DNA of 64,000 bases from a virus (IMGVR_UViG_3300042349_000626); one strand, 5' to 3'; positions 7,458 to 63,796 are shown, numbered from the stretch's first letter. Notes: generated by a model from the letters alone, not told the origin. A program made the numbers and translations.

Positions 7458-7460
7458 TTT

Positions 7461-25203: not shown

Positions 25204-28200
25204 ATGCCATTTAGTAGTACGCCAGTATATGTTGGGCTTGGAGATCAAGTAGAAGTTAGATACCCAACACCATCAACTTGGAATACAAAAGTATCAGTTA
25301 ACGTTCAAATTGGAACTGGTTCTGATCCTGATGGCATTATTTTTGGTACGAGAATACCAGATTCGAGACCAGATAGTTTTAGCTTTAACGATCAACAAGC
25401 ATTTATTAACACAAGTACCACAACAGTACTTACAACAATTGAAAGATCTACTACATATTATTCAAATGAAATTTTAGTTAATGGAATTGAAATTGAAATT
25501 CCTGCTGTAGTAACGGTTACTACTAGTGGTCCGAAAGGAACTACGACAGGAGCAAATGCCGCTGCTGCTTTTAGAATAGATCGTGGTGGTTCTATAGGTC
25601 CTTGGATTACGTCAGGAACTGTACGTCAAGGCGATAAGATCAGATTACGATTAACCACCGAAAATTGGTATACTACAACAACTAATGTAACCCTCAGACT
25701 TTCAGATGAAACGTGGGGAACAAATGTAGGGCAACCTAGTGCTGTAGTAAGTGATACTTGGTCTGTTACTACACGAGCACAAGATCAACTTGTAAATTCT
25801 TGGCAGTTTACTGATTTTGTTGATGTTATTGCTACAGAATTTGGTACATACAAAACACAAAATATACCCATCACTGGCATTGATTCTGATGCTGTTTTAA
25901 GAGCTACATCTACTGGTAATGTACAGATTTCTAAAGATAATTCAACTTGGTCTCAATCTGTAACTGGTCTTGTTTTAAACAATACATTATATACACGAAT
26001 TGCTATTGGATCTACGTATACAACTAAAACATCTGGATCCGTAACTATTTTTTCAAATGATGCTGATACTTTAACTGGCGGTTACGAAAATAACGATGCT
26101 GGAACTTATGGGTCTGGAACTTTTCAAGTAATACAAGCAATTGGAACTGTAACAGATAACTGGTATGTTTGGACAGAAGTAGATAGATATCCAAATACTG
26201 TTTCTTTATCTCCTATTTTTACTCCATCCGATGATGGAACAATTGATAATGTTGTAGTTAGTTCTACAAATACTTTTAATGCTGCTGAACCAGACAGAAC
26301 TTATTTTACCAATTTCAATATTTCTGGATTGGGTACAGAATATCCAAGCAATACATATGCTGAAGCAGCAACCCCAATTAATCCTTCGTATCTTTCTAGT
26401 TCACTACCGTTAAATACTACTCCAACTTCAAATCAAACTGTACAAGTTCTTTGTTCTGTAACTAGTGGTGATGCTCAAATTAGAAAGAATAATACAGGAA
26501 CTTGGGTACAACAATTATATGTTCAAAATGGCGATCAAGTAAATTTAAGATTAACTGCTTCTCCCAATTTCAATACTACAAAAACTAGTTCAATTAGAAT
26601 ATCTGGTCCTCCATCAGCTGGTCCTAATGGGAACCCCACGGCAGGTCCAACAACACCTACATTTGCTGATAAAGTAGATACAATTACTTTAAAAACACGA
26701 CTTTCTAGAAGCACTCCATATCCATTCAGAGCTAGAGATAATTATACCGCTTTGCCTGGACAAACATATATTGTAACCATACCAATTGCTGGTCTTGATG
26801 TAGCTACCACAGCACAAGCAGTAGATGCCGAATCAACTGTAGGAGCAAATGTACAAGTAAGTGTAGATAACGTAACATTTGCTAAAACTGTTACTGTTCC
26901 TGCTACTGCTGAAGTAGTATATGTAAGAGCAACTGCTTCAAATACTCAAGGTAATGTTGTTAGTGCTGCTTATAGAATTGGAAGCACTACTGATGTTTGG
27001 AAAATACAAACACAAATAGAAGACAATATTTATGCTAGTTACAGTGGTGGTGTTGGTGCTAGTGGGTCTTTTGTTGAATATAATCTCCCAGCTTATGTAC
27101 AGCAATTATCTTTTGTAATGTATGGTGGTGGTGGCGGAAATGGTGGTGATGATGCCCCAAATAGTTTTGGTGGAAGGGGTGGTTTTAGTACAATATTAAA
27201 GGGTGTAATTAATTTACCTCAAGAAGTGTTGAATGATGACAATTTAAGAAATCTAAAAATATATACAGGAAATTCTGGTAGATTTGGTGTAAATTTCTTG
27301 AGTGGTGCTCAAGGTGGAGCTGGTGGTTGGGGTTATGCTATTGGTGGTGATGGTGGTAATGCTGGTCCTAGCGATAAATCAGGTGGAGGAGGCGGAGGCG
27401 GTGGTGCTTCCGCTATTACATTAGGGGATGGAACTTTACTTGTTATGGCTGGAGGTGGTGGCGGCGGTGCTGGTGCTGGTAATGACACTACGCTTCAACA
27501 AACAAATCAAAATGGCAACTATACAGGAATAACTACATTAAGAACATCTTTAAATGGATTGAATTTTAATGGTTCTGATGGTCAATCTAATCTCACCGAT
27601 GGTGGTGGTGGAGGCGGTGGTGGTGGTGGCTTTGGAGCTGGTGGAATAATTCCGCCAAACAAAGTTGATGAAAGTGGTGTTGTAATCCAAACAACTGATT
27701 TAGATGCTATTGGTGGCACAACTGGAGATCTTTATTATAATTCAAATTACGCCACAATAACAGAAACAACTGGTTTAAATTTGGGTGCTGGACCACAAGA
27801 GTTTGGCTATGTAATGTTAACTTATTCTCCGCAGGACATTACACCAGAACCATTTTTCTTCCCTGAAGTAGATAATGCTTCTCCTGCTACTCAATACACT
27901 TCAGAAAAAGTTCAAATTTTTGGAATCACTGGTGGAGTTATATCTACATTGATTGGTAATAATGCCCAAGTTAGAACTTGTAATCCAAATGATCCAAATA
28001 CCTGTGGAGCATGGGGACAATCAGCAATTATTTTCAATGAAGGATATGTTCAAGTCAGATTTACAACTGGCAATGATTATTTTACGACTTACAGAGCAAA
28101 CGTTACGATTGGTAATGTAACTTCATTCTTTAATGTAAATACTGGCGAACCCCCAGATAATAATCCAGCGCCATTTACAATACCAAATAAAATAGATCAA

Positions 28201-30672
28201 GCAGTTAATACTTTAATTGAAAGTGATATTGTGTATGTGTCTGGGATTAACATACCAGTAAATATAACTGCTAGCAATGGAGCACAAATTTCTATTTGTA
28301 CTCCATCTGGGACATGTGATACCTACCAAAATTCTCCTAGACAAATATCGAACGGTCAGGGCTTTAAGGTTAGATTGTTATCATCACCAGATAATTTAAC
28401 ATCTGTTTTTACTGACGTAGCTATAGGAACTGGTCCATCAGTTGAGTGGGAAGTTAGAACAATTAAAAGTTTTGATACTTCGCCAATCGGTTTTATTTTC
28501 ACTGATTTATCTAATGTTCCGCTCAATACTCTCGTAAATAGTAACACCAGAACAATACAGGGTATTGATACATCTATTGTTGCTACTGTGACTGGTGGAG
28601 CTTCTGTAATATTAAATGCCAATACAGCAAATCCAATACTTCCTGTCGGAAATACAACCACATTCACTGTAAGCAATCTTGATAGTATTCAATTACGATA
28701 TACGACTAGCGGTATAAATGGAGATCCAAAACAATTTATTGTAACTGTTGGAACTTATAGCACTACATGGACAGTCACAAACGAAGGGCAGTTAGGAACA
28801 ACACCAACACCATTTTTATTCACGCCAGTACTTGCTACTGGTCCTGGTACATTTACTGATTCTGAAATTATCACAATTAGTGGTCTGGGTCAAACAGTAA
28901 GTATATTTTCTACTGGTGGTGGATTAATTAGTATCAATGGTGGTAGTTTTCAATTGTTGACTGCCTCTAATCCAGGAACTGTTAGTAATGGTAATACAAT
29001 TAGAGTTAGATTAAAATCAAGTGAAATAGAAGCATTTTCTCTTTCTACCAATATATACGTTGGTTCATTTAATACCCCATTCTCGGTAATTACCCCTGGA
29101 CCAGAGCCAGAACCTGTATTTGGGCAGTATTACAGCAGTCCTTTTGTAATTAAGGTATTAGGTTCCGATCAAATTAAATTTAATACTAAATTTGATGGCA
29201 TGGCAATTGGATCAATTATGCCTGTATTTAAAGATAATACCCAAGTAGATGAATGGGGAATTTCTGAGGATAAATTGAATGGTAAAGCCAACTCTAGATT
29301 TCCTGGGTGGATTTATTGTGATGGTAGATTTGTTTCACCACAAGATTATCCACTTCTTTATCAAGTAATTGGAAATACTTTCGGGGCAAATCTTGCTGGG
29401 GAATTTAGAGTTCCTGACATGAGAAATAGAAAACTTCTCGGAACAGGAAACGTAGATAACCAATCACCATCTTCGCCAATTGTCACACCAGAATATGGTC
29501 CAGCAAAACAAAGTGGAAATGGTTCTGCTTTTATTCCAGGATCTTTTGGTGGAATGTGGTACATTGACACTATTGCCGATCCTGGTATAGATGAATTGGA
29601 ACAAGTAGAAACCCCAGCAACTGGACAACCAGCTCAAGATAGTCAATTTTTTGCTGTTGCTCAAATTATCACAACTGGTTATTCTGAAGTATCAGATACA
29701 ATCGAATTTGCTGTTAGTGGACAAGTATCTGGTCAGGTTTCTTTAAAAGAAACTAAACTTTTTGATGTTCCATTCCACCAGCATAATCTTATTACTGGAC
29801 AAGCTGATTTAGGTAGTGTTAAAGGAAGAGTTGGGTGGGGAAGTCCTGGTGGTGCCCCTAGTGGAGTTGATATAGGACAAAAAGGCGGAAATTCAGCATC
29901 TCCTCCTCTAGAAGGAACGGCAACTATTAATCTGTGGGGATATCATACTGGGAATCAATATCAATTGCTGAGCGATCCTTCAAATAGTGATGAAAGCGCC
30001 AACACTCTTAGAACAACTAATTCAATTGCTACATATGGTACTGTTTGGGGTAAAAAAATCGGAGAATATGGTTTATGTCTCCCTCCAGGAAAACAAGGAA
30101 ACTTCTTAAATCCTAATACAGATCCTGGACCAACTCAGGATGAATATCAATGTATTGAGTTTTTACAAATATTTGATACGTCTTGTGGTAGCCCTACTAC
30201 TGCCGAAATTCATAATTCAATTACTATTAGACAGCCAAACTCAGCAATATTTGGTGAAATTTATAATTACGTAGATAATAATGCTTTGCCAGCAGACACA
30301 GTTTCTGGCAATAATTTAAGATGGATTGGAGCTGTAACTATTCCTAGAAGATTTATTAGCGTTTCTAAGTTTTCTCCTTCAACAAAACTTTCCCATTCCC
30401 ATTATCTTTCGTTGTCTGCTATAACTAATACTAATACCGTATTTTCTTATGGTAATAGTATTGGGGGCGGAACATCGTTTGGTGGGGCACCTACCAATTC
30501 TTCAGTTTCTGTCGTATTTACTGCTGCTCAAGTTGGACTTGAAGTTTTCCCAGGAACATTTACTTTAGGTTTAGGAAAACAGTTGATACCGTCGCCAGCA
30601 TTCTCTCCAAATGATTTGGTGCCACTTGTTACACCTTATACTAAAGTTAGATGGGTAATCAAAGCATATTAA
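25204..30672 (+). CDS. long tail fibre protein (1822 aa) with Gly-rich blocks and a C-proximal tail-collar domain
   Basis: FPGWIYCDGRFVSPQDYPLLYQVIGNTFGANLAGEFRVPDMRNRKLLG collar motif. Gly blocks resemble those of paralogs 1 and 3. Confidence 0.75.
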   Translation: MPFSSTPVYVGLGDQVEVRYPTPSTWNTKVSVNVQIGTGSDPDGIIFGTRIPDSRPDSFSFNDQQAFINTSTTTVLTTIERSTTYYSNEILVNGIEIEIPAVVTVTTSGPKGTTTGANAAAAFRIDRGGSIGPWITSGTVRQGDKIRLRLTTENWYTTTTNVTLRLSDETWGTNVGQPSAVVSDTWSVTTRAQDQLVNSWQFTDFVDVIATEFGTYKTQNIPITGIDSDAVLRATSTGNVQISKDNSTWSQSVTGLVLNNTLYTRIAIGSTYTTKTSGSVTIFSNDADTLTGGYENNDAGTYGSGTFQVIQAIGTVTDNWYVWTEVDRYPNTVSLSPIFTPSDDGTIDNVVVSSTNTFNAAEPDRTYFTNFNISGLGTEYPSNTYAEAATPINPSYLSSSLPLNTTPTSNQTVQVLCSVTSGDAQIRKNNTGTWVQQLYVQNGDQVNLRLTASPNFNTTKTSSIRISGPPSAGPNGNPTAGPTTPTFADKVDTITLKTRLSRSTPYPFRARDNYTALPGQTYIVTIPIAGLDVATTAQAVDAESTVGANVQVSVDNVTFAKTVTVPATAEVVYVRATASNTQGNVVSAAYRIGSTTDVWKIQTQIEDNIYASYSGGVGASGSFVEYNLPAYVQQLSFVMYGGGGGNGGDDAPNSFGGRGGFSTILKGVINLPQEVLNDDNLRNLKIYTGNSGRFGVNFLSGAQGGAGGWGYAIGGDGGNAGPSDKSGGGGGGGGASAITLGDGTLLVMAGGGGGGAGAGNDTTLQQTNQNGNYTGITTLRTSLNGLNFNGSDGQSNLTDGGGGGGGGGGFGAGGIIPPNKVDESGVVIQTTDLDAIGGTTGDLYYNSNYATITETTGLNLGAGPQEFGYVMLTYSPQDITPEPFFFPEVDNASPATQYTSEKVQIFGITGGVISTLIGNNAQVRTCNPNDPNTCGAWGQSAIIFNEGYVQVRFTTGNDYFTTYRANVTIGNVTSFFNVNTGEPPDNNPAPFTIPNKIDQAVNTLIESDIVYVSGINIPVNITASNGAQISICTPSGTCDTYQNSPRQISNGQGFKVRLLSSPDNLTSVFTDVAIGTGPSVEWEVRTIKSFDTSPIGFIFTDLSNVPLNTLVNSNTRTIQGIDTSIVATVTGGASVILNANTANPILPVGNTTTFTVSNLDSIQLRYTTSGINGDPKQFIVTVGTYSTTWTVTNEGQLGTTPTPFLFTPVLATGPGTFTDSEIITISGLGQTVSIFSTGGGLISINGGSFQLLTASNPGTVSNGNTIRVRLKSSEIEAFSLSTNIYVGSFNTPFSVITPGPEPEPVFGQYYSSPFVIKVLGSDQIKFNTKFDGMAIGSIMPVFKDNTQVDEWGISEDKLNGKANSRFPGWIYCDGRFVSPQDYPLLYQVIGNTFGANLAGEFRVPDMRNRKLLGTGNVDNQSPSSPIVTPEYGPAKQSGNGSAFIPGSFGGMWYIDTIADPGIDELEQVETPATGQPAQDSQFFAVAQIITTGYSEVSDTIEFAVSGQVSGQVSLKETKLFDVPFHQHNLITGQADLGSVKGRVGWGSPGGAPSGVDIGQKGGNSASPPLEGTATINLWGYHTGNQYQLLSDPSNSDESANTLRTTNSIATYGTVWGKKIGEYGLCLPPGKQGNFLNPNTDPGPTQDEYQCIEFLQIFDTSCGSPTTAEIHNSITIRQPNSAIFGEIYNYVDNNALPADTVSGNNLRWIGAVTIPRRFISVSKFSPSTKLSHSHYLSLSAITNTNTVFSYGNSIGGGTSFGGAPTNSSVSVVFTAAQVGLEVFPGTFTLGLGKQLIPSPAFSPNDLVPLVTPYTKVRWVIKAY

Positions 30673-31639: not shown

Positions 31640-32025
31640 TGATAACTAGAGATTTTTTAGAGTGGATTGAATACTATACAGAAACTCAGAAAAAAACGAT
31701 GATGATTCTGAGAACTGTTGGACCAGACAATGTAACGGACACGGAAAAAGCAAATCAAATTTATTCAGCATATTATCAAAATCTACAGCCAGAATCACCT
31801 GAGTTATTTGACAAACTATTGTATAATGAATTTACATTTGTGGAATTTGATACCGAAGAGCAAGCATATCTATTTGCCACTGAGAATTTTCCAATGAATC
31901 GAGATGGCGATCCTGATTATTTTGTTCAGGTTGTGGTATTTTCGAACGGTAATTTGGCTTACTCGAACGATAATCTACGATCATTTTCTGACAGAATACC
32001 GCCCCCAGTTCAGCCACCTGCTTAA
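31636..32025 (+). CDS. hypothetical protein
   Basis: 129-aa ORF, ATGA-coupled to the previous gene. Confidence 0.5.
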   Translation: MMITRDFLEWIEYYTETQKKTMMILRTVGPDNVTDTEKANQIYSAYYQNLQPESPELFDKLLYNEFTFVEFDTEEQAYLFATENFPMNRDGDPDYFVQVVVFSNGNLAYSNDNLRSFSDRIPPPVQPPA

Positions 32026-32026
32026 T

Positions 32027-32068
32027 TGGCACAAGGGGGTTGACTGCCCTCTTTTTTTGTGCCATACT
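32027..32068 (+). promoter_or_regulatory. composite boundary element: TGGCACA-AGGGGG-TTGACT(32040)-17 (contains T7)-CATACT(32063)
   Basis: Weak GGGG/CCCT stem plus T7 run, then a consensus-spaced -35/-10. Sits just after the stop of ORF 31636. Confidence 0.55.
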
Positions 32069-32090
32069 ATCTTTATTGAAACGCTTCGCC

Positions 32091-41908: not shown

Positions 41909-42311
41909 TGTTCGTCACCGAAGACAATATGTAGCAACGAAACCCCGTAACTGGGATGCTTGGAATGCTGGTCTGGTAAATGATACACCTAATGTAGCAG
42001 TACAAAAAGTATTTCAAGCACTTCGTAATGATCAGGAAGTTGACTTGATTATTGTTTCTGGTCGCTCAGATGACTATAAAGAACAAACTATCAAGTGGTT
42101 GACTGACAACGAAATCTTCTACGATGAGATTTATATGAGAAAGTATAAGGATCATCGTGATGATGCGGTTGTCAAAAATGAGATTGCGGATGAGATTGAG
42201 AAGACACACAAAATTCTTGGTGTGTTTGATGATCGCCAGCGTGTTGTCAACATGTGGATTGAGCGTGGCATCTGGGTGTTTGATGTTGGACAAGGCAAGG
42301 GACAGTTTTGA
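41844..42311 (+). CDS. pseT: polynucleotide kinase 3'-phosphatase (HAD) domain. Probably joined to the kinase ORF by a +1 frameshift (programmed or error) near 41867-41876
   Basis: FVFDLDGT (HAD motif I), VSGR, DDRQRVVNMW resemble the T4 Pnk C-domain. No ATG near the domain start; the track starts it at TTG. Confidence 0.65.
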   Translation: MIMSNVELKKCFVFDLDGTICDVRHRRQYVATKPRNWDAWNAGLVNDTPNVAVQKVFQALRNDQEVDLIIVSGRSDDYKEQTIKWLTDNEIFYDEIYMRKYKDHRDDAVVKNEIADEIEKTHKILGVFDDRQRVVNMWIERGIWVFDVGQGKGQF

Positions 42312-42313
42312 AA

Positions 42314-42356
42314 CTGACACAAGAGGGTTGACACCCTCTTTTTTATGGTCTATACT
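42314..42356 (+). promoter_or_regulatory. composite terminator/promoter: TGACACA-AGAGGGT-[TGAC loop]-ACCCTCT-T6; TTGACA(42328)-17-TATACT(42351)
   Basis: 7-bp stem plus U-run that is also an exact -35/17/-10. Lies just after the pnk stop. Confidence 0.6.
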
Positions 42357-42379
42357 GACTTCAGTTCAAACAAAAAAAC

Positions 42380-42580
42380 ATGTCCAGTTCTTCCTCTTCC
42401 TCCAGCGGTATCGGTTTCCCTGGTCTGCTGACTGTTCTGTTTGTTGGTCTGAAACTTACTGGCCACATTACTTGGCCATGGGTGTGGGTGCTGTCGCCGT
42501 TGTGGATTAGTGCTCTTATCTTTCTTTGTGCTGTTGCCACTATCGTGATTGTTGGTGTTATTACTGGTGCTTTCAAATGA
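42380..42580 (+). CDS. small membrane protein (poly-Ser N-terminus, two TM segments)
   Basis: 66-aa hydrophobic ORF. Confidence 0.45.
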   Translation: MSSSSSSSSGIGFPGLLTVLFVGLKLTGHITWPWVWVLSPLWISALIFLCAVATIVIVGVITGAFK

Positions 42581-49557: not shown

Positions 49558-49722
49558 ATGACTCTCCCAAAACAACCAAATAGTAGTCTCAACAATGAAG
49601 AATGGAATGAGATGGTTGCCTTAAGGAACGCCATTCATGACCTTCCCCAGTCAGTTTCTCCAGAAAAAATGGAACAATTTACAGCGTATCTTGTGAGAAG
49701 CATCCGAGAAAATGGTGGGTGA
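49558..49722 (+). CDS. hypothetical protein (54 aa)
   Basis: Hand-translated. RBS AAGAGG lies within a CTGACACAAGAGG motif. Extended -10 TGTATAAT at 49519-49527. Confidence 0.3.
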   Translation: MTLPKQPNSSLNNEEWNEMVALRNAIHDLPQSVSPEKMEQFTAYLVRSIRENGG

Positions 49723-49734
49723 CAGTTGAGCAAG

Positions 49735-49776
49735 TGGCACAGGGGGCTTGACGCCCCCTTTGTTTTGCCCTATATT
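49735..49776 (+). promoter_or_regulatory. composite terminator/promoter: TGGCACA-GGGGGC-[TTGAC]-GCCCCC-TTTGTTTT; TTGACG(49748)-17-TATATT(49771)
   Basis: 6-bp GC stem with the -35 in the loop. Immediately after the stop of ORF 49558. Confidence 0.6.
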
Positions 49777-49801
49777 AAGTGAGTCAACAACAGAGGACCA
49801 C

Positions 49802-50257
49802 ATGGCAACCCGCTCACGAATCGGCATCATGCTTCCCGACGAATCTGTGCTCTCGGTGTACCACCACTGGGATGGCTACCCAGAGTGGCTTGGTCGTATT
49901 CTCAAGACCCACTACAACAGCCGTGAGAAAGCGTCTGAACTGATCGACGGCGGTGATATGAGTTCCTGCTGGACTGAAGATCGTTGGACTACTGAAACCA
50001 TTCAGTTGAATCCTTATGTTTCTGAAGCAAATACTTCTACGAAAGAAGTAGAATACGGTCCTCAGTATTATTCTCAGCGTGGCGATGATTGCCCCCCTCG
50101 GCATGATGACAACAAGTATGATTATCTTGCCGATGGCGAGGAGTATGCTTACCTGTTCACTCTCGATGGCGAGTGGATCTGCTATGATCGCCACCAGTTT
50201 GAAGAGAACACTATGCCCACCATTGCTGAGATTCCTTCGGGAGCACTGGCAGTCTGA
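49802..50257 (+). CDS. hypothetical protein (true start ATG 49802 with GAGGA RBS; the track's 49748 start runs through the promoter)
   Basis: 151-aa ORF. Leader contains GAGTCAACAACAG. Confidence 0.5.
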   Translation: MATRSRIGIMLPDESVLSVYHHWDGYPEWLGRILKTHYNSREKASELIDGGDMSSCWTEDRWTTETIQLNPYVSEANTSTKEVEYGPQYYSQRGDDCPPRHDDNKYDYLADGEEYAYLFTLDGEWICYDRHQFEENTMPTIAEIPSGALAV

Positions 50258-50261
50258 CAAC

Positions 50262-50304
50262 TGGCACACACCACCCCACAACGGGGTGGTTTCACCCCTA
50301 TAAT
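50262..50304 (+). promoter_or_regulatory. composite element, hairpin-abutting variant: TGGCACA-CCACCCC/GGGGTGG hairpin-TATAAT(50299)
   Basis: Same stop-TGGCACA-hairpin-(-10) layout as 62830-62873, with no TTGACA. Confidence 0.45.
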
Positions 50305-50327
50305 GAGTAGGTACTCAAGCAAACGAC

Positions 50328-52387: not shown

Positions 52388-52586
52388 AGATGGATATGCT
52401 ACGGTCCCCTGGGGGGACCGTTTTGTTTTAATACACAATGGCTTTCAGCTCAGTGATCACAAGACAGATGAGCAAGCAATTGAAGCACTCAAGAAACATA
52501 GGGAGAAAAACAAACCGAAGCCACCCAAACGTGCCAGTAAGAAAACTGGCACACGCTCCAAGTCAAAGGGTAAAATTGACTTATAA
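52377..52586 (+). CDS. small protein with basic K-rich tail
   Basis: 69-aa ORF. Confidence 0.35.
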   Translation: MITKDGYATVPWGDRFVLIHNGFQLSDHKTDEQAIEALKKHREKNKPKPPKRASKKTGTRSKSKGKIDL

Positions 52587-52781
52587 TACATGTAGTTGAG
52601 GAACCACTATGTACAACGTCACAGAAAATCAAGTCAATGAAGCAGTTGAACTTGTATTCGACACACTTCAATTAGAACCTAATTTGGCAAGCGATTTTCA
52701 TAGATTACTTGTTGATTGGTTGGATGTCAATAATGTAGAAATTATCGAATAAAAATAAATAGTTGGAAATGGTAGCATAAA

Positions 52782-54404
52782 ATGTCAGCAACTACTTCCA
52801 TAGAAAGTTTACAGTGCTTCGCATTTGCTTATTATGCTATAAATCCAACTATTACTAATGTTCACCAACAAAATTGGTATGATATATTTGATATAACACA
52901 ATTATCTCAACAAGAAATAAAAAACAAATCTAATTTATTGAGATCTACATATGGCAATCATTTGAGTTCAACGTTTAGTTCAAACATATTTGAAAATGTA
53001 TTGAACCAATATGGAAGCACATTAACAGCTACAGGAAAAGTTAGCATTAGTGAATATGTTAAGAAAGTATATCTTGTTGCCAAGAAAGTTGCTGCCACTT
53101 CTTTATTAGATAAGTGGTCACAATACGTGTTTCTTGATCAATCAGATTCTTTCACTACACTGGTTAAAAATACTGCTTTACAAAGAATCGCTTCAGCATT
53201 TGATATGCTAGGCAAAGATGATTTACTTTCCCCAGTAGATATGTTTGCCGTAAAGAAAACTAAAATTACTACAATTCTTACTGATTTCAACAAGCATATA
53301 ATTAATGCTACCGATGAACAATTGCTAGCAAATACTATTTGGGGTAAAACTGGCAAGAATACATATAGAACTTTATCAAACAAGTATTTCAAATCAAAAT
53401 CTATGATTGGAATATCATTGAAATTACCTGAAGCGATTACTGGATCAGGAATAATAAAAATTGTTGGTACTGAAAATGTTGATTCATCTCTTCTTGGTTT
53501 TGTAGATCCATATACAAAATTGATTGCTGCTATGTTAGCACATCCAACACAAACAAAAAAATTAATTGAGGACGTTATTGATATTGAATTTGATAATTTT
53601 AGAATAACACCTGATTTATTATCATGGGAGTACCCCATTACGTTTAGATATAAAGATGTTGTAGATCCCAGAACAGGATTAGAATTACACAAACAAAATC
53701 TTCGATTTAAATTGATGACATGGAGCAGTCAAGGATTTAATGCTTCGTGGTATAAAGGACAAGAAGCACCAGGAAATTGGACTGGTGGAGCCACAACTAT
53801 TCCTATTGGCGAACTATTTGTTAGATACAATGAATATTCTGGAATTTTAAATGAATTGGTTAAATTAAGAAGAGCAGCATTTTTCTATGCTATTCATGGA
53901 TCTACTAAAGATCCCTCATCAATAATACCTAAAAATTTGAAGTCTGAATATGAGAAGGCATTAAATGATGTGGAAAAGAAAATGATACTCACATCAGACA
54001 AAAGAGCCAACGTGGGCGAAGCAAAGAATTTGATAACGTTTTTGGAGGCATATTCTCCATCTTCCAACAAATATCATGTTTATCAGGAACATCTCATATT
54101 AAGTACAACAAGACCTATGAGAAATTCATCTAGGATTGTAACTAAAGATCCTAAGAGATTGAATGCTCACTACATTGCTTGTCAATGTGCTTGGTTTTTG
54201 TTTAGAGGTGGTCCTTCAATGCACAAATATCTCAAACAAAGAATGTTCTTATCATTGTTTGGTTTAATTACTAAGAGTGGATACAAAATCTTTCAAGGTA
54301 ATGAGAACACTGTTATGGAAGATTACCTCCAGAAATCATTCAAGAAAAACAAGAAGAATTTTGTAGCATACTTCAATGCTGCTCCCCACATCGTATTGTC
54401 ATAG
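52782..54404 (+). CDS. 540-aa hypothetical protein, strongly AT-rich relative to its neighbours (candidate moron)
   Basis: Long clean ORF. I recognise no motifs. Confidence 0.55.
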   Translation: MSATTSIESLQCFAFAYYAINPTITNVHQQNWYDIFDITQLSQQEIKNKSNLLRSTYGNHLSSTFSSNIFENVLNQYGSTLTATGKVSISEYVKKVYLVAKKVAATSLLDKWSQYVFLDQSDSFTTLVKNTALQRIASAFDMLGKDDLLSPVDMFAVKKTKITTILTDFNKHIINATDEQLLANTIWGKTGKNTYRTLSNKYFKSKSMIGISLKLPEAITGSGIIKIVGTENVDSSLLGFVDPYTKLIAAMLAHPTQTKKLIEDVIDIEFDNFRITPDLLSWEYPITFRYKDVVDPRTGLELHKQNLRFKLMTWSSQGFNASWYKGQEAPGNWTGGATTIPIGELFVRYNEYSGILNELVKLRRAAFFYAIHGSTKDPSSIIPKNLKSEYEKALNDVEKKMILTSDKRANVGEAKNLITFLEAYSPSSNKYHVYQEHLILSTTRPMRNSSRIVTKDPKRLNAHYIACQCAWFLFRGGPSMHKYLKQRMFLSLFGLITKSGYKIFQGNENTVMEDYLQKSFKKNKKNFVAYFNAAPHIVLS

Positions 54405-54416
54405 ACACCACACAAA

Positions 54417-54457
54417 CCGTCACGGGGGCTTGACCAGCCCCTTTTTCATGCTATGAT
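54417..54457 (+). promoter_or_regulatory. composite terminator/promoter (degenerate TGGCACA): GGGGC-[TTGACCA]-GCCCC-T5; TTGACC(54430)-16-TATGAT(54452)
   Basis: Hairpin plus U-run followed by a good -10. Just after the stop of ORF 52782. Confidence 0.5.
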
Positions 54458-54482
54458 ACGAGGGTAGTCAAGGGAGACCCCC

Positions 54483-54674: not shown

Positions 54675-54768
54675 GCACAGTGGGACAGTTCTGAAAGTGG
54701 CACACTGACCACCACAGATCCGTCCCACACACCCTATAATTACAGAGTAATCAACGGAGCACCTTCCC

Positions 54769-58489: not shown

Positions 58490-58761
58490 TTGTGCCACTG
58501 ATTCAACTGGCACACACCACTCACCAACACCACTCAGCAGCCCCTACAATAAGCACAGTTCAAACAACTCACATGAACACCACTGTCACCATCACTCTCA
58601 CTCCTGAGCAGCGTACAGCTCTTGCTGATGCTCTTTATATTCGAGCAATGGATCTTCAAGCCAACGTTCATGGAACAGATCGTAATGTGGCAATGAATGA
58701 AGTTGCTGCTTGTTTGCTCGATCAAATGGATTATCCTGTACATGAATGGATGAATGTATGA
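58486..58761 (+). CDS. hypothetical protein
   Basis: ORF. Confidence 0.35.
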   Translation: MIVPLIQLAHTTHQHHSAAPTISTVQTTHMNTTVTITLTPEQRTALADALYIRAMDLQANVHGTDRNVAMNEVAACLLDQMDYPVHEWMNV

Positions 58762-59261
58762 TCAAAGCAGCAGTATTTTGTGGTAAAATCATTCCTGGTT
58801 ACTATGTTTCCACCGATGGACGTGTATTCACTACTAGAATCAGAATCAGAAACAAAGGAAAGATTACTCGGTTTGACAACACAGGACCAATGGTAGAAAT
58901 GATACAAACAAGATGGAATAAAAAACAAGATTACCTATCTGTTCGCCTAGCAATACCATATGGATTATTACCCAATGATGAACACTACCAAAAGAAAAGA
59001 AAAAATTTAAATTGTACAACATATCAACGTAGAGTATATGTTCATAGGTTAGTAATGGAAACATATAAACCAATAGAAAAGTATCCACCTGATAGATTGA
59101 AAACACATTGGAAAGAATTACCATCACCAGTCAAAGAGATTATAAGTGAAATGATCTATGTTAATCATATGGATCATGTACAAACAAATAATCATGTAAG
59201 TAATCTTGAATGGGTAACACCACAAGAAAACTCTATTAGGGCAGCTACTTTCCGCAGGTAG
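58746..59261 (+). CDS. HNH homing endonuclease, second copy, AT-rich island
   Basis: YYVSTDGRVFT...VHRLV...VNHMDHVQTNNHVSNLEWVTPQEN is a classic phage HNH homing-endonuclease signature. Confidence 0.75.
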   Translation: MDECMIKAAVFCGKIIPGYYVSTDGRVFTTRIRIRNKGKITRFDNTGPMVEMIQTRWNKKQDYLSVRLAIPYGLLPNDEHYQKKRKNLNCTTYQRRVYVHRLVMETYKPIEKYPPDRLKTHWKELPSPVKEIISEMIYVNHMDHVQTNNHVSNLEWVTPQENSIRAATFRR

Positions 59262-59302
59262 AGTATCCAGTGTATGACTGAGATGTTCTCAATGATACCT
59301 TT

Positions 59303-59343
59303 GAGTTTTCCACATACCTGTGGAAAAACCTGTGGAAAACTAG
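59303..59343. repeat. hairpin repeat copy 1 (AGTTTTCCACA-N4-CCTGTGGAAAA..CTAG)
   Basis: Inverted repeat TTTTCCACA/TGTGGAAAA. Direct repeat of 59553-59587. Confidence 0.5.
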
Positions 59344-59552
59344 TATATTAATAAATGTTTAAAAAAACATAGTTGAGTGTTTTGAATTGCTCACATAAGC
59401 TTTCGTTAATTGTTGCTGAAAGCATGGAAATGTACGGAGGTGTTGTTGTCTAAGCCCGCCACCACTCGAAAGTCAAGGATTTATGTGCCAGTTCTCCAAG
59501 TGTCACACAGGGGCTTGACAAATAGTTCTATATATGCTTCGAGCACCTCCAA

Positions 59553-59587
59553 GATAGTTTTCCACAACCCTGTGGAAAAACTCCTAG
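59553..59587. repeat. hairpin repeat copy 2
   Basis: Same 30-35 bp unit. The two copies flank about 210 bp of structured non-coding sequence. Confidence 0.5.
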
Positions 59588-59600
59588 CCACTTCGAGGAC

Positions 59601-59641
59601 TGGCACAGGGGGTTGACAAGCCCAGAAAAACCTGCTACACT
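59601..59641 (+). promoter_or_regulatory. sigma70-like promoter TGGCACA-G5-TTGACA(59613)-17-TACACT(59636), no hairpin
   Basis: Exact spacing. Shares AAAACCTGCTACA with the tRNA-cluster promoter. Confidence 0.55.
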
Positions 59642-59656
59642 GTATTCATGAAGTTC

Positions 59657-59733
59657 GGAAATCTCAAAAATCGAGAAATCCCAAAAATCCAAAAAACTCA
59701 AAAACTTGAAATTTAAGGTTTTTGAGATTTTCC
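59657..59733. repeat. A-tract iterons (AAATCTCAAAAA x3-4 at ~10-11 bp phasing) bracketed by the imperfect inverted repeat GGAAATCTCAAAAA / TTTTTGAGATTTTCC
   Basis: Seen directly. A similar array lies at 61125-61190. Confidence 0.45.
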
Positions 59734-59764
59734 AAAAACTTCAAAGTTAAACTTTAACATTTAA

Positions 59765-60001
59765 TTGATGAACATGAAAACCATTAACAACATTGATTCT
59801 ACTGCTATTAACACTGTAACACAAGATAGTGATAACCTTGTTACTATTACATTTAACAGTGGTAAGAGCTATAATTACCGTGATACCACTGGTAATTTTG
59901 TAAATACCGTTGAGAATGCTGTAGAAAACAACCAAAGTGTTGGTCGTTTGTTCAATCGAGCACTAAAAGAAGATCAAACTCTTCAACTAGTCACTGTTTG
60001 A
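59765..60001 (+). CDS. hypothetical protein, AT-rich
   Basis: 78-aa ORF. Confidence 0.4.
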   Translation: MMNMKTINNIDSTAINTVTQDSDNLVTITFNSGKSYNYRDTTGNFVNTVENAVENNQSVGRLFNRALKEDQTLQLVTV

Positions 60002-60050
60002 ACAATAAATAACCCAAATACCACAACAACTGGAGTAAATTGAGTTAAAA

Positions 60051-60209
60051 ATGGCAAAAACAAGTCGTAAGTACACAGATCCCGTTAAAGATCTGCCCCT
60101 TGAAGATGACTACGAGAATTTTGGATACGATATCCAAAACGCTAAACGTTATTCCACAAGGAACAAACGCCAGACCAAATTCAAGGACTACGATGATTAT
60201 GGTGAGTGA
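60051..60209 (+). CDS. small basic/acidic protein (52 aa)
   Basis: Hand-translated. Confidence 0.3.
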   Translation: MAKTSRKYTDPVKDLPLEDDYENFGYDIQNAKRYSTRNKRQTKFKDYDDYGE

Positions 60210-60221
60210 ATAAAATATTTC

Positions 60222-60250
60222 AAGGGGGGCATTAGCCCCTCTTTTTTTAT
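60222..60250 (+). terminator. intrinsic terminator (GGGGGGC-ATTA-GCCCCTC then T7)
   Basis: 7-bp GC stem plus U-run after ORF 60051. Confidence 0.6.
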
Positions 60251-60410
60251 ACACATCCACAAGGGCATTCATAGCACGTTTAGGTGCCCCTGCCTCTATG
60301 ACACTGTGACACTTCGGCAAGTGGCATAGAGGGGCTTCCAGGGGGCTCTCAGGGGTGCCATACTATGTTCATCGGGGGAACACCCCGACCCACACTACTC
60401 AAAGGATCAA

Positions 60411-60590
60411 ATGACCTCTCAGCAACTGCTCCAGACCGCTCGTAACGTGCTCACCGCCACTTCGAGCGACACTGGTCGTCCTGCCCTTCGGAAGGCTGCC
60501 ATGGCAGCTGGTCGTACCCAACAGCAGGTGGACAAGGCTAGCACCATGCGTCTGGCACTGTGGAGCCGTGGCTTTAAGTCCGCCATCTGA
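60411..60590 (+). CDS. small GC-rich hypothetical protein (59 aa)
   Basis: Hand-translated; AAGGA RBS. The track shows only minus-strand shadows here. Confidence 0.4.
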   Translation: MTSQQLLQTARNVLTATSSDTGRPALRKAAMAAGRTQQQVDKASTMRLALWSRGFKSAI

Positions 60591-60592
60591 AC

Positions 60593-60634
60593 TGGCACAA
60601 GGGGGTTGACACCAGCCCCCACCCATGTTATTCT
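60593..60634 (+). promoter_or_regulatory. composite element: TGGCACA-AGGGGG-TTGACA(60606) in a GGGGG/CCCCC hairpin -17- TATTCT(60629)
   Basis: Just after the stop of ORF 60411. Confidence 0.5.
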
Positions 60635-60657
60635 TGATCTGTACCTGAGAAATCCAA

Positions 60658-60825
60658 ATGGATTACTTCAACACCAACATCGTTGCCCGTCATGAAGACA
60701 CCACCATGCTGAATGCTTGGATGGTTGAACACTTCAACTTCGTGCTTTCTATGCCTTGGTTGACTGATGCTGAGATTGACATGTATGAAGATGAGAAAGC
60801 AATGTACCTTTGTTACGATGTATGA
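60658..60825 (+). CDS. hypothetical protein (55 aa)
   Basis: Hand-translated. Confidence 0.3.
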   Translation: MDYFNTNIVARHEDTTMLNAWMVEHFNFVLSMPWLTDAEIDMYEDEKAMYLCYDV

Positions 60826-60910
60826 TGGTTGACACTTACAACTTTACTGGTGACGCTGTGACAGTTCTAGGACTGGTCGGTGTCATCTCCACTGGCATCA
60901 TCCTGGTGCT

Positions 60911-61123
60911 ATGCTTCACTCGTTACTACAACTCACCCCTTCGGAAATGATGGATCGTCAAGTTCTTCAAGAACAACTTGTTCAACAAATGTTGGATGAC
61001 ATGGATCTTAAAACAGTGATGTCATTGTGTTATGACTATCTTCAAGAGGGTTATGATAAGTATAGTGATGAAGAATTGAAGGAAGAGGTAGAACAGTATT
61101 ATCCTGAAATTTTAGAAAACTAA
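60911..61123 (+). CDS. hypothetical acidic protein
   Basis: 70-aa ORF. Confidence 0.4.
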   Translation: MLHSLLQLTPSEMMDRQVLQEQLVQQMLDDMDLKTVMSLCYDYLQEGYDKYSDEELKEEVEQYYPEILEN

Positions 61124-61140
61124 AAAATCTAAAAATCTCA

Positions 61141-61190
61141 AAAACTGAGAAATCTAAAAAACTCAAAAGTTAAGATTTCTCAGTTTTTTT
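61141..61190 (+). terminator. long AU-rich hairpin (15-bp stem AAAACTGAGAAATCT/AGATTTCTCAGTTTT, 17-nt loop) ending in a T-run; sits in the second A-tract array
   Basis: Perfect inverted repeat 18 nt after the stop of ORF 60911. Confidence 0.45.
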
Positions 61191-61325
61191 AACATTAAAC
61201 TTTAATCTTTAATCTTATGTCTAATATATTAACCTTTCAAGATTATATAAAGAATGAATTAGAAGAACAAGATATAAAGAATAAAGAATACGAATACGAT
61301 GACTATAGTATAACTACAGATATAG

Positions 61326-61382
61326 ATTATACTACTCAAGAGTAGTATATTATACCCTCTAGACCACAATCTAGAGGGTATT
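61326..61382. other. two tandem perfect hairpins (ATATACTACTC/GAGTAGTATAT and ACCCTCTAGA/TCTAGAGGGT), the second followed by TTTTAGTGTTT
   Basis: Seen directly. Could be a bidirectional terminator or a structured RNA. Confidence 0.45.
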
Positions 61383-61433
61383 TTAGTGTTTGTCAAGGGG
61401 TGCTGTGCCACTTTCTGAACTGTCCACTCCCCC

Positions 61434-61462
61434 TTGACACCGCTGGTTGTTGTTGCTATGCT
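61434..61462 (+). promoter_or_regulatory. sigma70-like promoter TTGACA(61434)-17-TATGCT(61457). A divergent TGGCACA-GCACCCC-TTGACA element lies on the minus strand at 61391-61410
   Basis: Plus-strand promoter before gene 61519. A second TATACT..CAACCCACCA leader sits at 61482-61500. Confidence 0.45.
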
Positions 61463-61518
61463 TGGTGTGTGGTTGAGAGAAGTATACTCAACCCACCAAT
61501 CAATTCTTAACAACAACC

Positions 61519-61758
61519 ATGAACAACGAGTTTGTGAAGTCTTTCGTGTCCACCCTGATGTATAATCTAGCAACGGTGGTTGCTATCATCGTGGGTGTGG
61601 CACTGTTTGTTGCTAACCGTGCCCAGCAGTGGTACAACTCAGGCGGGCGAGAAACCCTCCTAAAGTATACTCAACGTGTGCTGCTGTTTGTGAGTTCTAC
61701 CACAGAAAAAGCCTACTATTGGGCATGTGATGTGACAGAATCTGAACTGGCACACTAA
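61519..61758 (+). CDS. small membrane protein
   Basis: 79-aa ORF with an N-terminal TM helix. Its last codons encode the TGGCACA motif. Confidence 0.45.
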   Translation: MNNEFVKSFVSTLMYNLATVVAIIVGVALFVANRAQQWYNSGGRETLLKYTQRVLLFVSSTTEKAYYWACDVTESELAH

Positions 61759-61803
61759 CACCCCCAGGGGGGCATCGTGCCCCCTATACTGAACAAGTCA
61801 ACA
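61747..61803 (+). promoter_or_regulatory. composite element plus conserved leader: TGGCACA-GGGGGCA/TGCCCCC hairpin-TATACT(61785)-GAACAAGTCAAC
   Basis: Copy 1 of the 20-mer CTATACTGAACAAGTCAAC(C). Confidence 0.5.
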
Positions 61804-61813
61804 CAATTCTATT

Positions 61814-62005
61814 ATGTTTGACCTCGCTTTTGTCACTCCTAAATCTAAAAAAGCAAAGAACAGATTTGCTAACCTGATGAACAGCAACCCAGAGTGTATT
61901 GTGGAACAAATTAAAGAGAACCGTGTGTTCCTTCGTTCTCACAATGGGAAGAACTTCTTCTGGGTTGCTGTCAAGAATGACCCAGACTGGAGTGTAGACT
62001 TCTGA
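61814..62005 (+). CDS. hypothetical protein
   Basis: 63-aa ORF 24 nt after the -10. Confidence 0.4.
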   Translation: MFDLAFVTPKSKKAKNRFANLMNSNPECIVEQIKENRVFLRSHNGKNFFWVAVKNDPDWSVDF

Positions 62006-62010
62006 CCCTG

Positions 62011-62081
62011 TGCCAGTTGGGGCACTGTCCACCAACACCAGCAGGGGGCACCACCAGCCCCCTATACTGAACAAGTCAACC
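62011..62081 (+). promoter_or_regulatory. composite element plus leader: inverted TGTGCCA, GGGGGC/GCCCCC hairpin, TATACT(62063), leader copy 2
   Basis: 20-mer CTATACTGAACAAGTCAACC at 62062-62081. Confidence 0.5.
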
Positions 62082-62096
62082 AAACGACACCCGATC

Positions 62097-62825
62097 ATGC
62101 TTCACTTCTCCCACGGCAACGCTAAGCTTGGCAAGGGCACAGTGATTTTCAACCTGCCTGCTGGCAGCACCTGCCCAGGTGCTCTCCAGTGCTTCTCCAT
62201 GGCGGTTGCTGATGCTAACGGCAAGCGTTCGATTGTTGACGGTCAACACACCCAATTCCGCTGCTTTGCTGCTTCTTCTGAGGTTCAGTATGACGCTGTT
62301 TATGCCAACCGCCAGCACAACTTTAAAACAATTGTTGAAGCTCTCAAGTCTGGCAATTGTGCTGATTTTATTAACACCGAACTCCAGAAAGCACGCAAAA
62401 AGAATACTAAACTCGTCCGAATTCATGAGTCTGGTGACTTCTTCTCTGCCGCCTATCTGCTCTCGTGGATGCTTGTTGCTCAGGCAAATCCTGATCTGAA
62501 GTTCTACTGCTACAGCAAGAATCTGCCACTGTTTGTTGGTTTGGTGTTGCCCTCTAACTTCTACTTCACTGCCTCCTATGGTGGTAAGTTCGACTATCTC
62601 ATCGATGAGGGCAAGTTTACACGCTACGCCAAGGTGTTCATGACCGAAGCTGATGCTAACGCTGCTGGTCTTAAGTTAGATTCACAGGATCAGTCTTGCT
62701 TTGAGGAAGGTCCCTTCGCTCTGCTGGTTCACGGCACCCAACCCAAGGGCAGCGAGTGGGGCAAAGCAGCGAGGGCAAACCGTAAGATCCAGAAGGCTAA
62801 AGTCAAGCAGCCTCAGCCAGTCTGA
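62097..62825 (+). CDS. hypothetical Cys-rich protein (true start ATG 62097)
   Basis: 242-aa ORF, GC-rich. CPGALQC motif. Confidence 0.5.
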   Translation: MLHFSHGNAKLGKGTVIFNLPAGSTCPGALQCFSMAVADANGKRSIVDGQHTQFRCFAASSEVQYDAVYANRQHNFKTIVEALKSGNCADFINTELQKARKKNTKLVRIHESGDFFSAAYLLSWMLVAQANPDLKFYCYSKNLPLFVGLVLPSNFYFTASYGGKFDYLIDEGKFTRYAKVFMTEADANAAGLKLDSQDQSCFEEGPFALLVHGTQPKGSEWGKAARANRKIQKAKVKQPQPV

Positions 62826-62829
62826 CAAG

Positions 62830-62886
62830 TGGCACACAGGGGGCAGCAATGCCCCCACCCCACCCCCTATACTGAACAAGTCAACC
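62830..62886 (+). promoter_or_regulatory. composite element plus leader copy 3: TGGCACA-GGGGGCA/TGCCCCC hairpin-TATACT(62868)-GAACAAGTCAACC
   Basis: Seen directly; starts 5 nt after the stop of ORF 62097. Confidence 0.5.
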
Positions 62887-62897
62887 ACAGGCACCCC

Positions 62898-63167
62898 ATG
62901 ACCTACGCCTTCACCGACACCGTACAGATCGATGAGCAGTGGGAGATCCCCACCAACCTCGACGCCGTTCTCTCTAAGGTGGACGAAATCCTGGAGAATC
63001 GGTATTGCATCTGGGGAGAATTCACCACCAGTGGTGACAACGAGTGGGCAACAGATCTGGCGATCCAAGGTATCCTGGAGGGCAAGAATCCTTCGGAGAT
63101 TGCTGATACAATCGCCAGTGAGTATGACCCCACCCCCGACATCATGCCTATCGGGGAGATGTTCTGA
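62898..63167 (+). CDS. hypothetical acidic protein
   Basis: 89-aa ORF (ATG 62898). Confidence 0.45.
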   Translation: MTYAFTDTVQIDEQWEIPTNLDAVLSKVDEILENRYCIWGEFTTSGDNEWATDLAIQGILEGKNPSEIADTIASEYDPTPDIMPIGEMF

Positions 63168-63169
63168 AA

Positions 63170-63230
63170 TGTTACAGGGGCATCCACAGGGGTGCCCCTC
63201 CCCATGCTAGAATTCCAGAGTCAACCACAC
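63170..63230 (+). promoter_or_regulatory. variant element: AGGGGCA/TGCCCCT hairpin-GCTAGAAT-CCAGAGTCAACCACAC leader
   Basis: Same layout with -10-like TAGAAT and an AGTCAACCACA leader. Confidence 0.4.
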
Positions 63231-63238
63231 AGCCACCG

Positions 63239-63400
63239 ATGAGAATCGAAGTCCGCTACCAGACCCCCTACAACCACACCGAGTGGCGGTCTCAGTGGTT
63301 CCCCACCCTGGAGGAGGCACAGCGTATGGTAGAATTCTACCTGAGCTGTGGATCACCCTCCCACATCGCCCCCAGCAGCCTCGCCCAGTTCGACCGATGA
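63239..63400 (+). CDS. hypothetical protein (53 aa)
   Basis: Hand-translated, GC-rich. Confidence 0.3.
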   Translation: MRIEVRYQTPYNHTEWRSQWFPTLEEAQRMVEFYLSCGSPSHIAPSSLAQFDR

Positions 63401-63567: not shown

Positions 63568-63593
63568 ACTGAATCACGACGACACCCACCCCC

Positions 63594-63770: not shown

Positions 63771-63796
63771 GAGGCTCTATACTGAACAAGTCAACC
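63755..63796 (+). promoter_or_regulatory. TTGCCA(63755)-17-TATACT(63778) plus leader copy 4 (CTATACTGAACAAGTCAACC)
   Basis: Seen directly; the -35 lies inside the end of the upstream ORF. Confidence 0.5.

Follow-up and report, generated by a model that had tools for sequence, protein, structure and literature searches.

The window analysed here, a 64,000-nucleotide (nt) stretch of viral DNA (IMGVR_UViG_3300042349_000626) taken as a whole, contains a repeated intergenic element, exemplified by the copy around position 42314, in which a TGGCACA-type box and a GC-rich stem-loop are combined with a sigma70-type promoter. The window is part of a T4-like cyanomyovirus, as judged from its DNA and protein matches to Synechococcus myoviruses, its gene content and the late-promoter words before its structural open reading frames (ORFs), and the element sits in the small-ORF hyperplastic region. 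The DNA matches are patchy, with 70-86% identity to S-CREM1, S-PM2, Sf-FR1 and S-SRM01, and the protein matches also point to Synechococcus myoviruses; nothing closer than these patchy matches, and no near-identical phage, was found among GenBank phages. G+C content is 32-45% across most of the window and the long ORFs all lie on the plus strand. They include giant structural ORFs of 3504 and 1822 amino acids (aa), and from about 42 kb onward there is a run of small ORFs. A cluster of eight tRNA genes occupies 5147-7544. The T4-type late promoter word TATAAATA occurs three times (7614, 24963 and 25168), always on the plus strand and directly 5' of a large structural ORF (ORFs 7658-18172 and 25204-30672).

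Eighteen plus-strand copies of the element, referred to below as cassettes, were found together with one divergent minus-strand promoter at 61410 (Table 1). Sixteen of the 18 fall in the 42-64 kb interval among small ORFs, all 18 are co-directional with the genes, and every composite copy lies at a gene boundary; the genes that follow code for small proteins whose function is unknown and one helicase. An earlier note on this DNA, made from the sequence alone, had listed 13 plus-strand copies and the minus-strand one, and on reading all of these positions hold an element. Its exemplar, AGAGGGT/TGAC/ACCCTCT with a T-run and TTGACA-17-TATACT, is exactly as claimed (42322-42356). The family is real, but the inventory had overlooked five copies (52547, 54698, 58508, 60322, with the box TGGCATA, and 63740) and an orphan dyad (59485-59507), as well as the dyad partner of the heptamer, the fixed distance from box to -10, the AGTCAA box and the constant length of 80-87 nt, all described below. 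The heptamer had also been given too uniformly: a box is present at the listed copies, but it reads TGACACA in the exemplar, CGTCACG at 54417, TGTTACA at 63170 and TGTCCAC at 61434 and 62011.

Table 1. Cassettes and related features of the window.
Feature	Coordinates	Strand	Description
Exemplar cassette	42299-42379	+	Dyad 42299-42321 = GGGACAGT-TTTGAA-ACTGACAC-A; TGA of upstream ORF (42309) in spacer
Exemplar hairpin	42322-42339	+	AGAGGGT/TGAC/ACCCTCT, -9.5 kcal/mol, z = -3.0; then T-run 42340-42345
Exemplar promoter	42328-42356	+	-35 TTGACA 42328-42333 in hairpin loop, spacer 17, -10 TATACT 42351-42356
Exemplar 3' part	42363-42380	+	AGTTCAA 42363-42369; ATG at 42380
Cassette	4907-4990	+	TTGACA-17-TATTAT, no significant hairpin; 5' of 43-aa ORF and tRNA cluster
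Cassette	32011-32090	+	Hairpin and T7 run, TTGACT-17-CATACT; 5' of DNA helicase gene (ATG 32091)
Cassette	49719-49801	+	Hairpin GGGGGC/GCCCCC and T-run, TTGACG-17-TATATT, then AGTCAAC; stop codon of upstream ORF is TGA within left arm GTGACAGT
Cassette	50246-50327	+	No -35; hairpin ACCACCCC/GGGGTGGT (-15.6 kcal/mol), then CCCC TATAAT
Cassette, newly found	52531-52608	+	Perfect dyad CGTGCCAGT-N6-ACTGGCACG (52538-52555), TATAAT, no hairpin, ATG 52609
Cassette	54402-54482	+	Degenerate box CGTCACG, hairpin and T5 run, TTGACC-16-TATGAT, then TAGTCAAGGGAG
Cassette, newly found	54682-54768	+	Dyad, CCC TATAAT; no hairpin, no -35
Cassette, newly found	58492-58572	+	Near-perfect dyad TGTGCCACT-N6-ACTGGCACA (58491-58514), CCCC TACAAT, AGTTCAA, no hairpin
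Orphan dyad	59485-59507		TGTGCCAGT-N6-AGTGTCACA, then GGGGCTTGACA; no properly spaced -10
Cassette	59585-59641	+	TTGACA-17-TACACT; no ORF 3', runs into A-tract repeat array
Cassette, newly found	60306-60410	+	Box TGGCATA, -10 CATACT, ATG 60411; canonical terminator 60222-60243 upstream
Cassette	60577-60657	+	Hairpin GGGGGTTG/CCAGCCCCC (-15.8 kcal/mol, no T-run), TTGACA-17-TATTCT
Divergent promoter	61368-61426	-	Other half of the dyad of the 61405 cassette: TGGCACA 61410-61404; -35 TTGACA 61396-61391, -10 TAGATT 61373-61368
Cassette	61405-61518	+	Degenerate right arm ACTGTCCAC, TTGACA-17-TATGCT, ATG 61519
Cassette	61732-61813	+	No -35; 3' arm of hairpin abuts -10 (GCCCCC TATACT), then GAACAAGTCAAC; insertion site in L050
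Cassette	62010-62096	+	Left arm TGTGCCAGT, degenerate right arm, hairpin abuts TATACT, then GAACAAGTCAAC
Cassette	62814-62897	+	Hairpin GGGGGCA/TGCCCCC (-15.8 kcal/mol), CCCCC TATACT GAACAAGTCAAC
Cassette	63154-63238	+	Box TGTTACA, hairpin -18.6 kcal/mol, -10 TAGAAT, AGTCAAC
Cassette, newly found	63724-63811	+	Left arm TGTGACAC, degenerate right arm, TTGCCA-17-TATACT, then GAACAAGTCAAC

TGGCACA occurs 26 times in the window, compared with 9.2 ± 3.1 times in dinucleotide shuffles, none of 100 of which reached 26. Since it is also present inside coding sequence, both here (structural ORFs at 22828 and 27714, helicase gene at 33097) and in phage Syn9 (88 plus-strand copies, mostly coding), the heptamer alone is nonspecific. 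The composite of box, -10 and ATG is specific. When this was defined as a box with at most one mismatch, TAnnnT at 35-38 nt and an ATG 15-35 nt beyond, 11 plus-strand sites were found against 0.43 ± 0.67 in shuffles, plus 1 on the minus strand. As a separate observation, TGGCACAGAC(C/G)ATCGG(G/T)CGTGT is kept inside the helicase gene of both phages (window 33097, Syn9 50176); the heptamer there is coding and scores highly against a dyad matrix, yet it is not a cassette.

The heptamer turned out to be the promoter-proximal (right) half of a 22-bp dyad, GTGMCAST-N6-ASTGGCAC(A). When the arm ACTGGCAC was compared with the sequence upstream of it, 83 of 136 positions were complementary at a spacer of 6, against 17-42 at the other spacers between 0 and 20. 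The left half and the spacer overlap the last codons and the stop codon of the upstream gene, so that the stop usually lies inside the dyad. To the other side, every copy keeps the box 35-38 nt from the -10 hexamer, with or without a hairpin or a -35 (the hairpin-less copies 52547, 54698 and 58508 included), and the centre of the dyad lies about 44-45 bp 5' of the centre of the hexamer, at about -54. Because of this fixed distance, and because it is half of a conserved dyad, TGGCACA is a promoter-upstream site and not a tag that follows the stop codon. The distance from stop to heptamer, earlier given as 2-10 nt in almost every copy, is 0-23 nt.

The same organisation was found in other viral DNA. 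IMG/VR was scanned for the exact pattern TGGCACA-N28-31-TATAMT-N4-8-AGTCAA, which does not include the left half of the dyad; at least 120 stretches carry it, with at least 133 matches among them, of which 85 are non-redundant. Across these 85 elements conservation extends to the left half, on which no selection had been made, with G in 65, C in 77, A in 67 and T in 62 at positions -14, -12, -11 and -9, respectively. The pattern from -14 to -9 is G, A/C, C, A, S, T, and AA(C/G) is kept at -3 to -1.

A -10 of the form TAnnnT is present in all 18 window copies, and half of them (9/18) have TTGAC at 16-18 nt from it, inside or beside the hairpin loop. By the criterion of at least five of six matching positions at the same spacing, a -35 is found in 9/18 window copies and in 8/85 IMG/VR elements, a set that was selected for the -35-less form. 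A C-run precedes the -10, and a box conserved as AGTCAA(C) or AGTTCAA stands 5-8 nt 3' of the hexamer, about where transcription is predicted to begin, and is followed by a short C/A-rich leader before the ATG; the stretch CTATACTGAACAAGTCAAC is identical in four window copies. The distance from -10 to ATG is 20-28 nt and that from dyad to ATG is 80-87 nt. These features support the earlier proposal of sigma70-type promoter cassettes at gene boundaries before small genes. Expression from them would be early, judging from the type of gene and from the homology of the element with those of Syn9 and S-PM2.

Between box and -10, 12 of the 18 window copies have a hairpin of -9 kcal/mol or stronger, with z <= -2.5 in 10 of them. 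Over this interval the 85 IMG/VR elements fold at a mean of -9.4 kcal/mol, compared with -6.6 kcal/mol for dinucleotide shuffles (Wilcoxon p = 6e-9), and 60 of them fold below their own shuffle mean. The hairpin starts 0-2 nt after the box (43/48 of the IMG/VR hairpins), while the stems are diverse, with 39 distinct 5'-arm sequences among those 48. The GC-rich stem-loop, present in about 55-65% of copies, is thus a genuinely selected, position-fixed part of the cassette. In four window copies (32027, 42315, 49735 and 54418) it is followed by a T-run (at least 6 T in 8), and these have the GC-rich stem and T-run of Rho-independent terminators. In contrast, 14/18 window copies and 80/85 IMG/VR elements lack a hairpin with T-run; most of the remaining hairpins run into C-rich sequence or the -10 itself, and some copies have no strong hairpin. 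Since a U-run follows in so few cases, most of the stem-loops are not canonical terminators, and the idea of a terminator/promoter cartridge, while right in outline, overstates termination.

Read as an RNA helix, the dyad might form a stem of 8-9 bp whose loop holds the stop codon, with the GC hairpin directly after it. Both would then be 3'-terminal stem-loops of the upstream mRNA, concerned with termination, processing or protection from exonucleases, and the regular placing of -10 and ATG would reflect tight packing. Only three dyad pairs vary on both sides in the IMG/VR set, and they showed no compensatory change. The doubly variable pair (-10, -1) is paired in 22 elements where 34 are expected under independence, and the association is anti-complementary (C-C, G-G; Fisher p = 4e-4), to which lineage effects may add; moreover, the commonest halves, GTGACA and TGGCAC, would meet in an A-G mismatch. 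Lacking covariation and with an association of the wrong sign, the RNA helix was rejected. The wider RNA reading can claim the four copies that are textbook terminators, but we regard it as unlikely, given that the distance from box to -10 is fixed even without a hairpin (52547, 54698 and 58508) and that the dyad also serves the divergent minus-strand promoter at 61410. The missing covariation, the mismatch and the use of the dyad at 61402-61426 by promoters in both directions lead us to favour a DNA site, which would be read by a protein or by RNA polymerase.

At 100 of the 120 IMG/VR loci there is protein similarity to Syn9 among the matches listed, and the loci are therefore cyanomyovirus-like. 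In Syn9 itself the same cassette is clustered at 46-53 kb among small ORFs (46342, 48575, 51017, 51228 and 53013), three copies sharing CGTG TATTCT ATAAGAGTCAAAG, and it is also found 5' of gp4, gp150, gp183 and psbA. In S-PM2 it lies 5' of p015 and p029. We also scanned 185,579 bacterial and archaeal species, each represented by a single genome, for the dyad with a -10 at the right distance. Five matches were obtained, against about 0.5 expected by chance, all on contigs of metagenome-assembled genomes (MAGs): L125, L127 and L129 (Flavobacteriales bacterium TMED113), L126 (Kaiserbacteria) and L128 (Lishizhenia). The proteins encoded on them resemble those of Syn9 and of the window, so that these are most likely contigs of cyanomyoviruses that were mis-binned into bacterial MAGs. 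No cassette was found in a cyanobacterial genome among the 185,579, although the pattern is strict and weaker host sites would escape it. A host regulon of the same architecture was accordingly rejected, the strict scan having returned only the mis-binned phage contigs.

Taken together, these results make it probable that the repeats are class-specific promoter cassettes of the small-gene (early, hyperplastic) region of T4-like cyanomyoviruses, the cyanophage counterpart of the promoter early stem-loop (PeSL) cassettes of other T4-like phages. Host RNA polymerase with the primary sigma factor would start transcription 6-9 nt after the -10. The dyad near -54 would be the site for a dimeric protein or for a contact with RNA polymerase, which could set the promoter class apart and make up for a -35 that is often absent. 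The stem-loop would act on RNA read through from the upstream cassette; in copies with a U-run it would be a true terminator, in the others an attenuator or a structure that protects 3' ends. Each small gene would thereby be largely its own transcription unit and, since the cassette is repeated, it would also offer a patch of homology for the gain and loss of gene cassettes.

Several points weigh against this model. The positions of start sites and 3' ends and the early timing are predictions from sequence, and the protein partner of the dyad is hypothetical. A hairpin with T-run is found in only 4/18 window copies and 5/85 IMG/VR elements (at least 5 T in 8), and a strong hairpin is lacking in 6/18 window copies and in about 44% of the others. 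Part of the folding signal could be a by-product, since in the 85 elements sequence conservation itself extends to the G-run that follows the box and the CCC that precedes the -10. The halves of the dyad are not equivalent, the left favouring GTGACA and the right TGGCAC. Provision of stop codons may in part have shaped the left half: the positions of stops have peaks at -15, -8/-7 and -5, and in 25/85 IMG/VR elements the upstream gene ends at the TGA within GTGACA. Finally, the spacing from box to -10 varies by 3 bp even among orthologous copies, which is loose for an activator contacting polymerase on one face of the helix.

A more specific version of the model is tentative, and we would put it at somewhat below an even chance. 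In it the dyad is the operator of a putative dimeric regulator (encoded by the host, carried in with the virion, or produced early to switch the class off) that would define the early regulon of T4-like cyanophages, and through the stem-loop within the promoter spacer a single DNA segment would be both the terminator of the cassette before it and the promoter of the one after it. The composite was found only on cyanomyovirus DNA and in none of the cyanobacterial genomes scanned, which leaves room for a phage-specific factor. T4-like cyanophages are not known to have the MotA/AsiA switch of T4.

The cassettes also mark places where related genomes differ. The IMG/VR stretch L050 (IMGVR_UViG_3300032218_003035) is collinear with window 59250-63395 at 70-88% identity, and has 936 extra nt exactly between the element at 61748 and the ATG at 61814 (reverse complement of L050, 2813-3873). 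Three units make up the insert, and every one of them has a dyad, a hairpin, a -10, an AGTCAA box and an ORF; the junctions of the insert lie in the CA-rich leader. In addition, 62001-64000 has a G+C content of 57%, compared with about 38% elsewhere; its genes, one of which encodes a PF17338 GP88-family protein (62097-62825), are separated by near-identical cassette copies. This suggests that the genes at 62-64 kb are recently acquired high-GC cassettes and, together with the L050 insertion, fits gene-cassette exchange at the repeated elements. tRNA genes were considered as the origin of the GC-rich copies at 61.7-63.8 kb; none lies there, ARAGORN and Rfam placing tRNAs only at 5147-7544. Nor did Rfam place a known RNA family at the cassette sites, its gathering-level matches being tRNAs only.

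Such exchange might be the primary role of the element. The repeats would then be selfish or recombinogenic, akin to miniature inverted-repeat transposable elements or to the palindromic target of an endonuclease or recombinase, spreading with the gene cassettes while the promoter features were secondary. A palindromic core at cassette boundaries, an indel of three cassettes exactly at an element in L050, near-identical copies flanking the high-GC cassettes and the speculation of the PeSL authors about a recombination protein that recognises the stem-loop would all suit this idea, but it is hard to reconcile with the strict orientation of the 18 plus-strand copies, co-directional with genes, with the fixed distances to -10 and ATG, or with the conservation of promoter-like positions in Syn9, S-PM2 and the 85 independent elements. 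Neither terminal inverted repeats nor target-site duplications were found. We therefore think it improbable as the main explanation; it is, moreover, compatible with promoter function, and recombination is better seen as following from the repetition than as a primary role.

The remaining readings carry almost no weight. TGGCAC with a TTGAC a few bases on superficially recalls the sigma54-type (-24/-12) consensus TGGCAC-N5-TTGCW, but the spacing is 6-7 nt and not 5, the TTGAC lacks the GC at -12 and is missing altogether from half of the copies, the consensus is absent from both strands of the window, and a sigma70-type -10 stands at a fixed distance in every copy, so that this reading, already turned down in the earlier note, was rejected by spacing and sequence and is exceedingly improbable. 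Cyanobacteria are not known to have rpoN. An artefact of composition, in which TGGCACA is a common coding word (Gly-Thr, GGC ACA), as its frequency in Syn9 structural genes (88 plus-strand copies) and its presence in window coding sequence might suggest, and the hairpins stem from G/C-rich intergenic DNA, is just as implausible when the composite is 25-fold above shuffles and always at a gene boundary, the left half-site is conserved in independent data and the hairpin is more stable than in dinucleotide shuffles.

The promoter cassettes described here have a close parallel in the PeSLs, repeated intergenic modules in the hyperplastic regions of the T4-like phages RB49/phi1, T4/PST and KVP40/nt-1, in which a polyG/polyC stem-loop lies just 5' of an AT-rich stretch and a sigma70-like early promoter (Arbiol et al. 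2010, PMC2839356; Comeau et al. 2014, PMC4122927). Their promoter and terminator activities were proven by reporter fusions, they mediate modular shuffling, and their authors speculated on a recombination protein recognising the stem-loop (PMC2839356, PMC4122927). Both are short modules that recur between a T4-like phage's small ORFs and span the interval from stop codon to ATG, and both have a link to indels of ORF cassettes between relatives (here one case, L050). The combination of a polyG...polyC stem-loop with a sigma70-like promoter recurs in part of the cyanophage copies (stem-loop in 12/18, -35 in 9/18). However, whereas the PeSL stem-loop lies just 5' of the promoter, that of the cyanophage cassette lies within it, between box and -10, often enclosing or replacing the -35. 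In place of an AT-rich upstream region there is a GC-containing 22-bp dyad (TGGCACA) and a G-run. Further differences are that the -35 is absent from half or more of the window-type copies, that the AGTCAA start-site box is conserved, that most hairpins lack a U-run, and that promoter and terminator activity is here predicted from sequence. The window also contains stand-alone canonical terminators of the hairpin and T-run type (52401-52421, 60222-60243 and 61352-61381), each 50-150 nt 5' of a cassette, which is the arrangement reported for classical PeSLs. A search for PeSLs in S-PM2 reported few (Puxty et al. 2015; PMC4503421).

Conservation well past the -35 and -10, including an upstream element and the start-site region, is a trait that the cassettes share with the early promoters of T4. 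The latter are extended sigma70 promoters conserved from about -55 to +7, with a strong -35 and an A-rich UP-like tract, and are used by the unmodified host polymerase; the cassettes differ in their GC-containing dyad, which stands in place of that tract, and in lacking uniformly strong -35 boxes. A palindrome at a roughly fixed distance 5' of a -10-only promoter also recalls the activator-dependent promoters of the CRP/NtcA type. A site of this type (TGTGA-N6-TCACA; GTA-N8-TAC at -41.5) was rejected, since the arms are of 8-9 bp with 6 between them (TGTG-N16-CACA). Class II geometry does not apply either, the centre being at about -54 and not at -41.5 or -61.5, and there is no GTA-N8-TAC.

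In 2016 Doron et al. reportedly described a novel regulatory element 5' of early genes in the T4-like cyanophages Syn9 and P-TIM40, unlike host-like promoters and reportedly frequent and conserved across the genomes and metagenomes of cyanophages. The cassette likewise occurs in the small-ORF region of Syn9 and is widespread in contigs of uncultured cyanomyoviruses (at least 120 stretches, at least 85 of them non-redundant), and it is probably this same element. In a search of the cyanophage literature TGGCACA turned up only in a primer table, the predictors of promoters and terminators applied in Sullivan 2010 were generic ones only, and several citing papers contain no details of a motif. 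The promoter table of S-PM2d lists CCTATACT GAT CTCAGTTC as a putative Pho box at position -30 (PMC10976474); this sequence resembles the C-run, -10 and start-site box of the cassette rather than a PhoB site. Because promoter/terminator cassettes of T4-like phages and a special early-gene element of cyanophages have already been published, the phenomenon mainly extends known biology. Its use lies in marking transcription units among the small early 'dark matter' genes, the part of a cyanophage genome that is least understood. A model of the cassette (dyad, hairpin, -10, start-site box and ATG at a fixed distance) could serve to annotate small genes and their true start codons in isolates and metagenomes, to flag phage contigs mis-binned into bacterial MAGs and to locate the breakpoints of cassette exchange. 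If the dyad does bind a protein, it would also provide a handle on the timing of early transcription in T4-like cyanophages, without MotA/AsiA.

The cassette at 4907-4990 is just 5' of the 43-aa ORF and the tRNA cluster at 5147-7544, and this adjacency suggests that the tRNA genes may be transcribed from the same promoter class. Another, at 59585-59641, lies in an ORF-free stretch of about 500 nt (59262-59764) that holds five of the window's eight TTTTCCACA words, of which 1.5 are expected window-wide; TTTTCCACA is the cyanobacterial DnaA-box consensus. They are arranged as TTTTCCACA-N4-TGTGGAAAA palindromes at 59306-59327 and 59558-59579, plus one extra copy of TTTTCCACA. The stretch also has two dyad boxes and a promoter (-10 at 59636), 3' of which, in its direction of reading, are A-tract repeats with a period of 8-9 nt (59650-59714) and an inverted repeat. 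A replication origin for which the promoter transcript acts as primer, or a locus for a non-coding RNA, could lie here. A second A-tract array is found at 61098-61190, with a 19-nt inverted repeat at 61140-61188; 3' of it are a tiny AT-rich ORF (61217-61345), palindromes at 61323-61354 and, terminator-like, at 61352-61381, and then the dyad that serves both directions. Transcripts from the minus-strand promoter at 61410 (TTGACA-17-TAGATT) would enter 61098-61400, where there is no evident protein-coding target.

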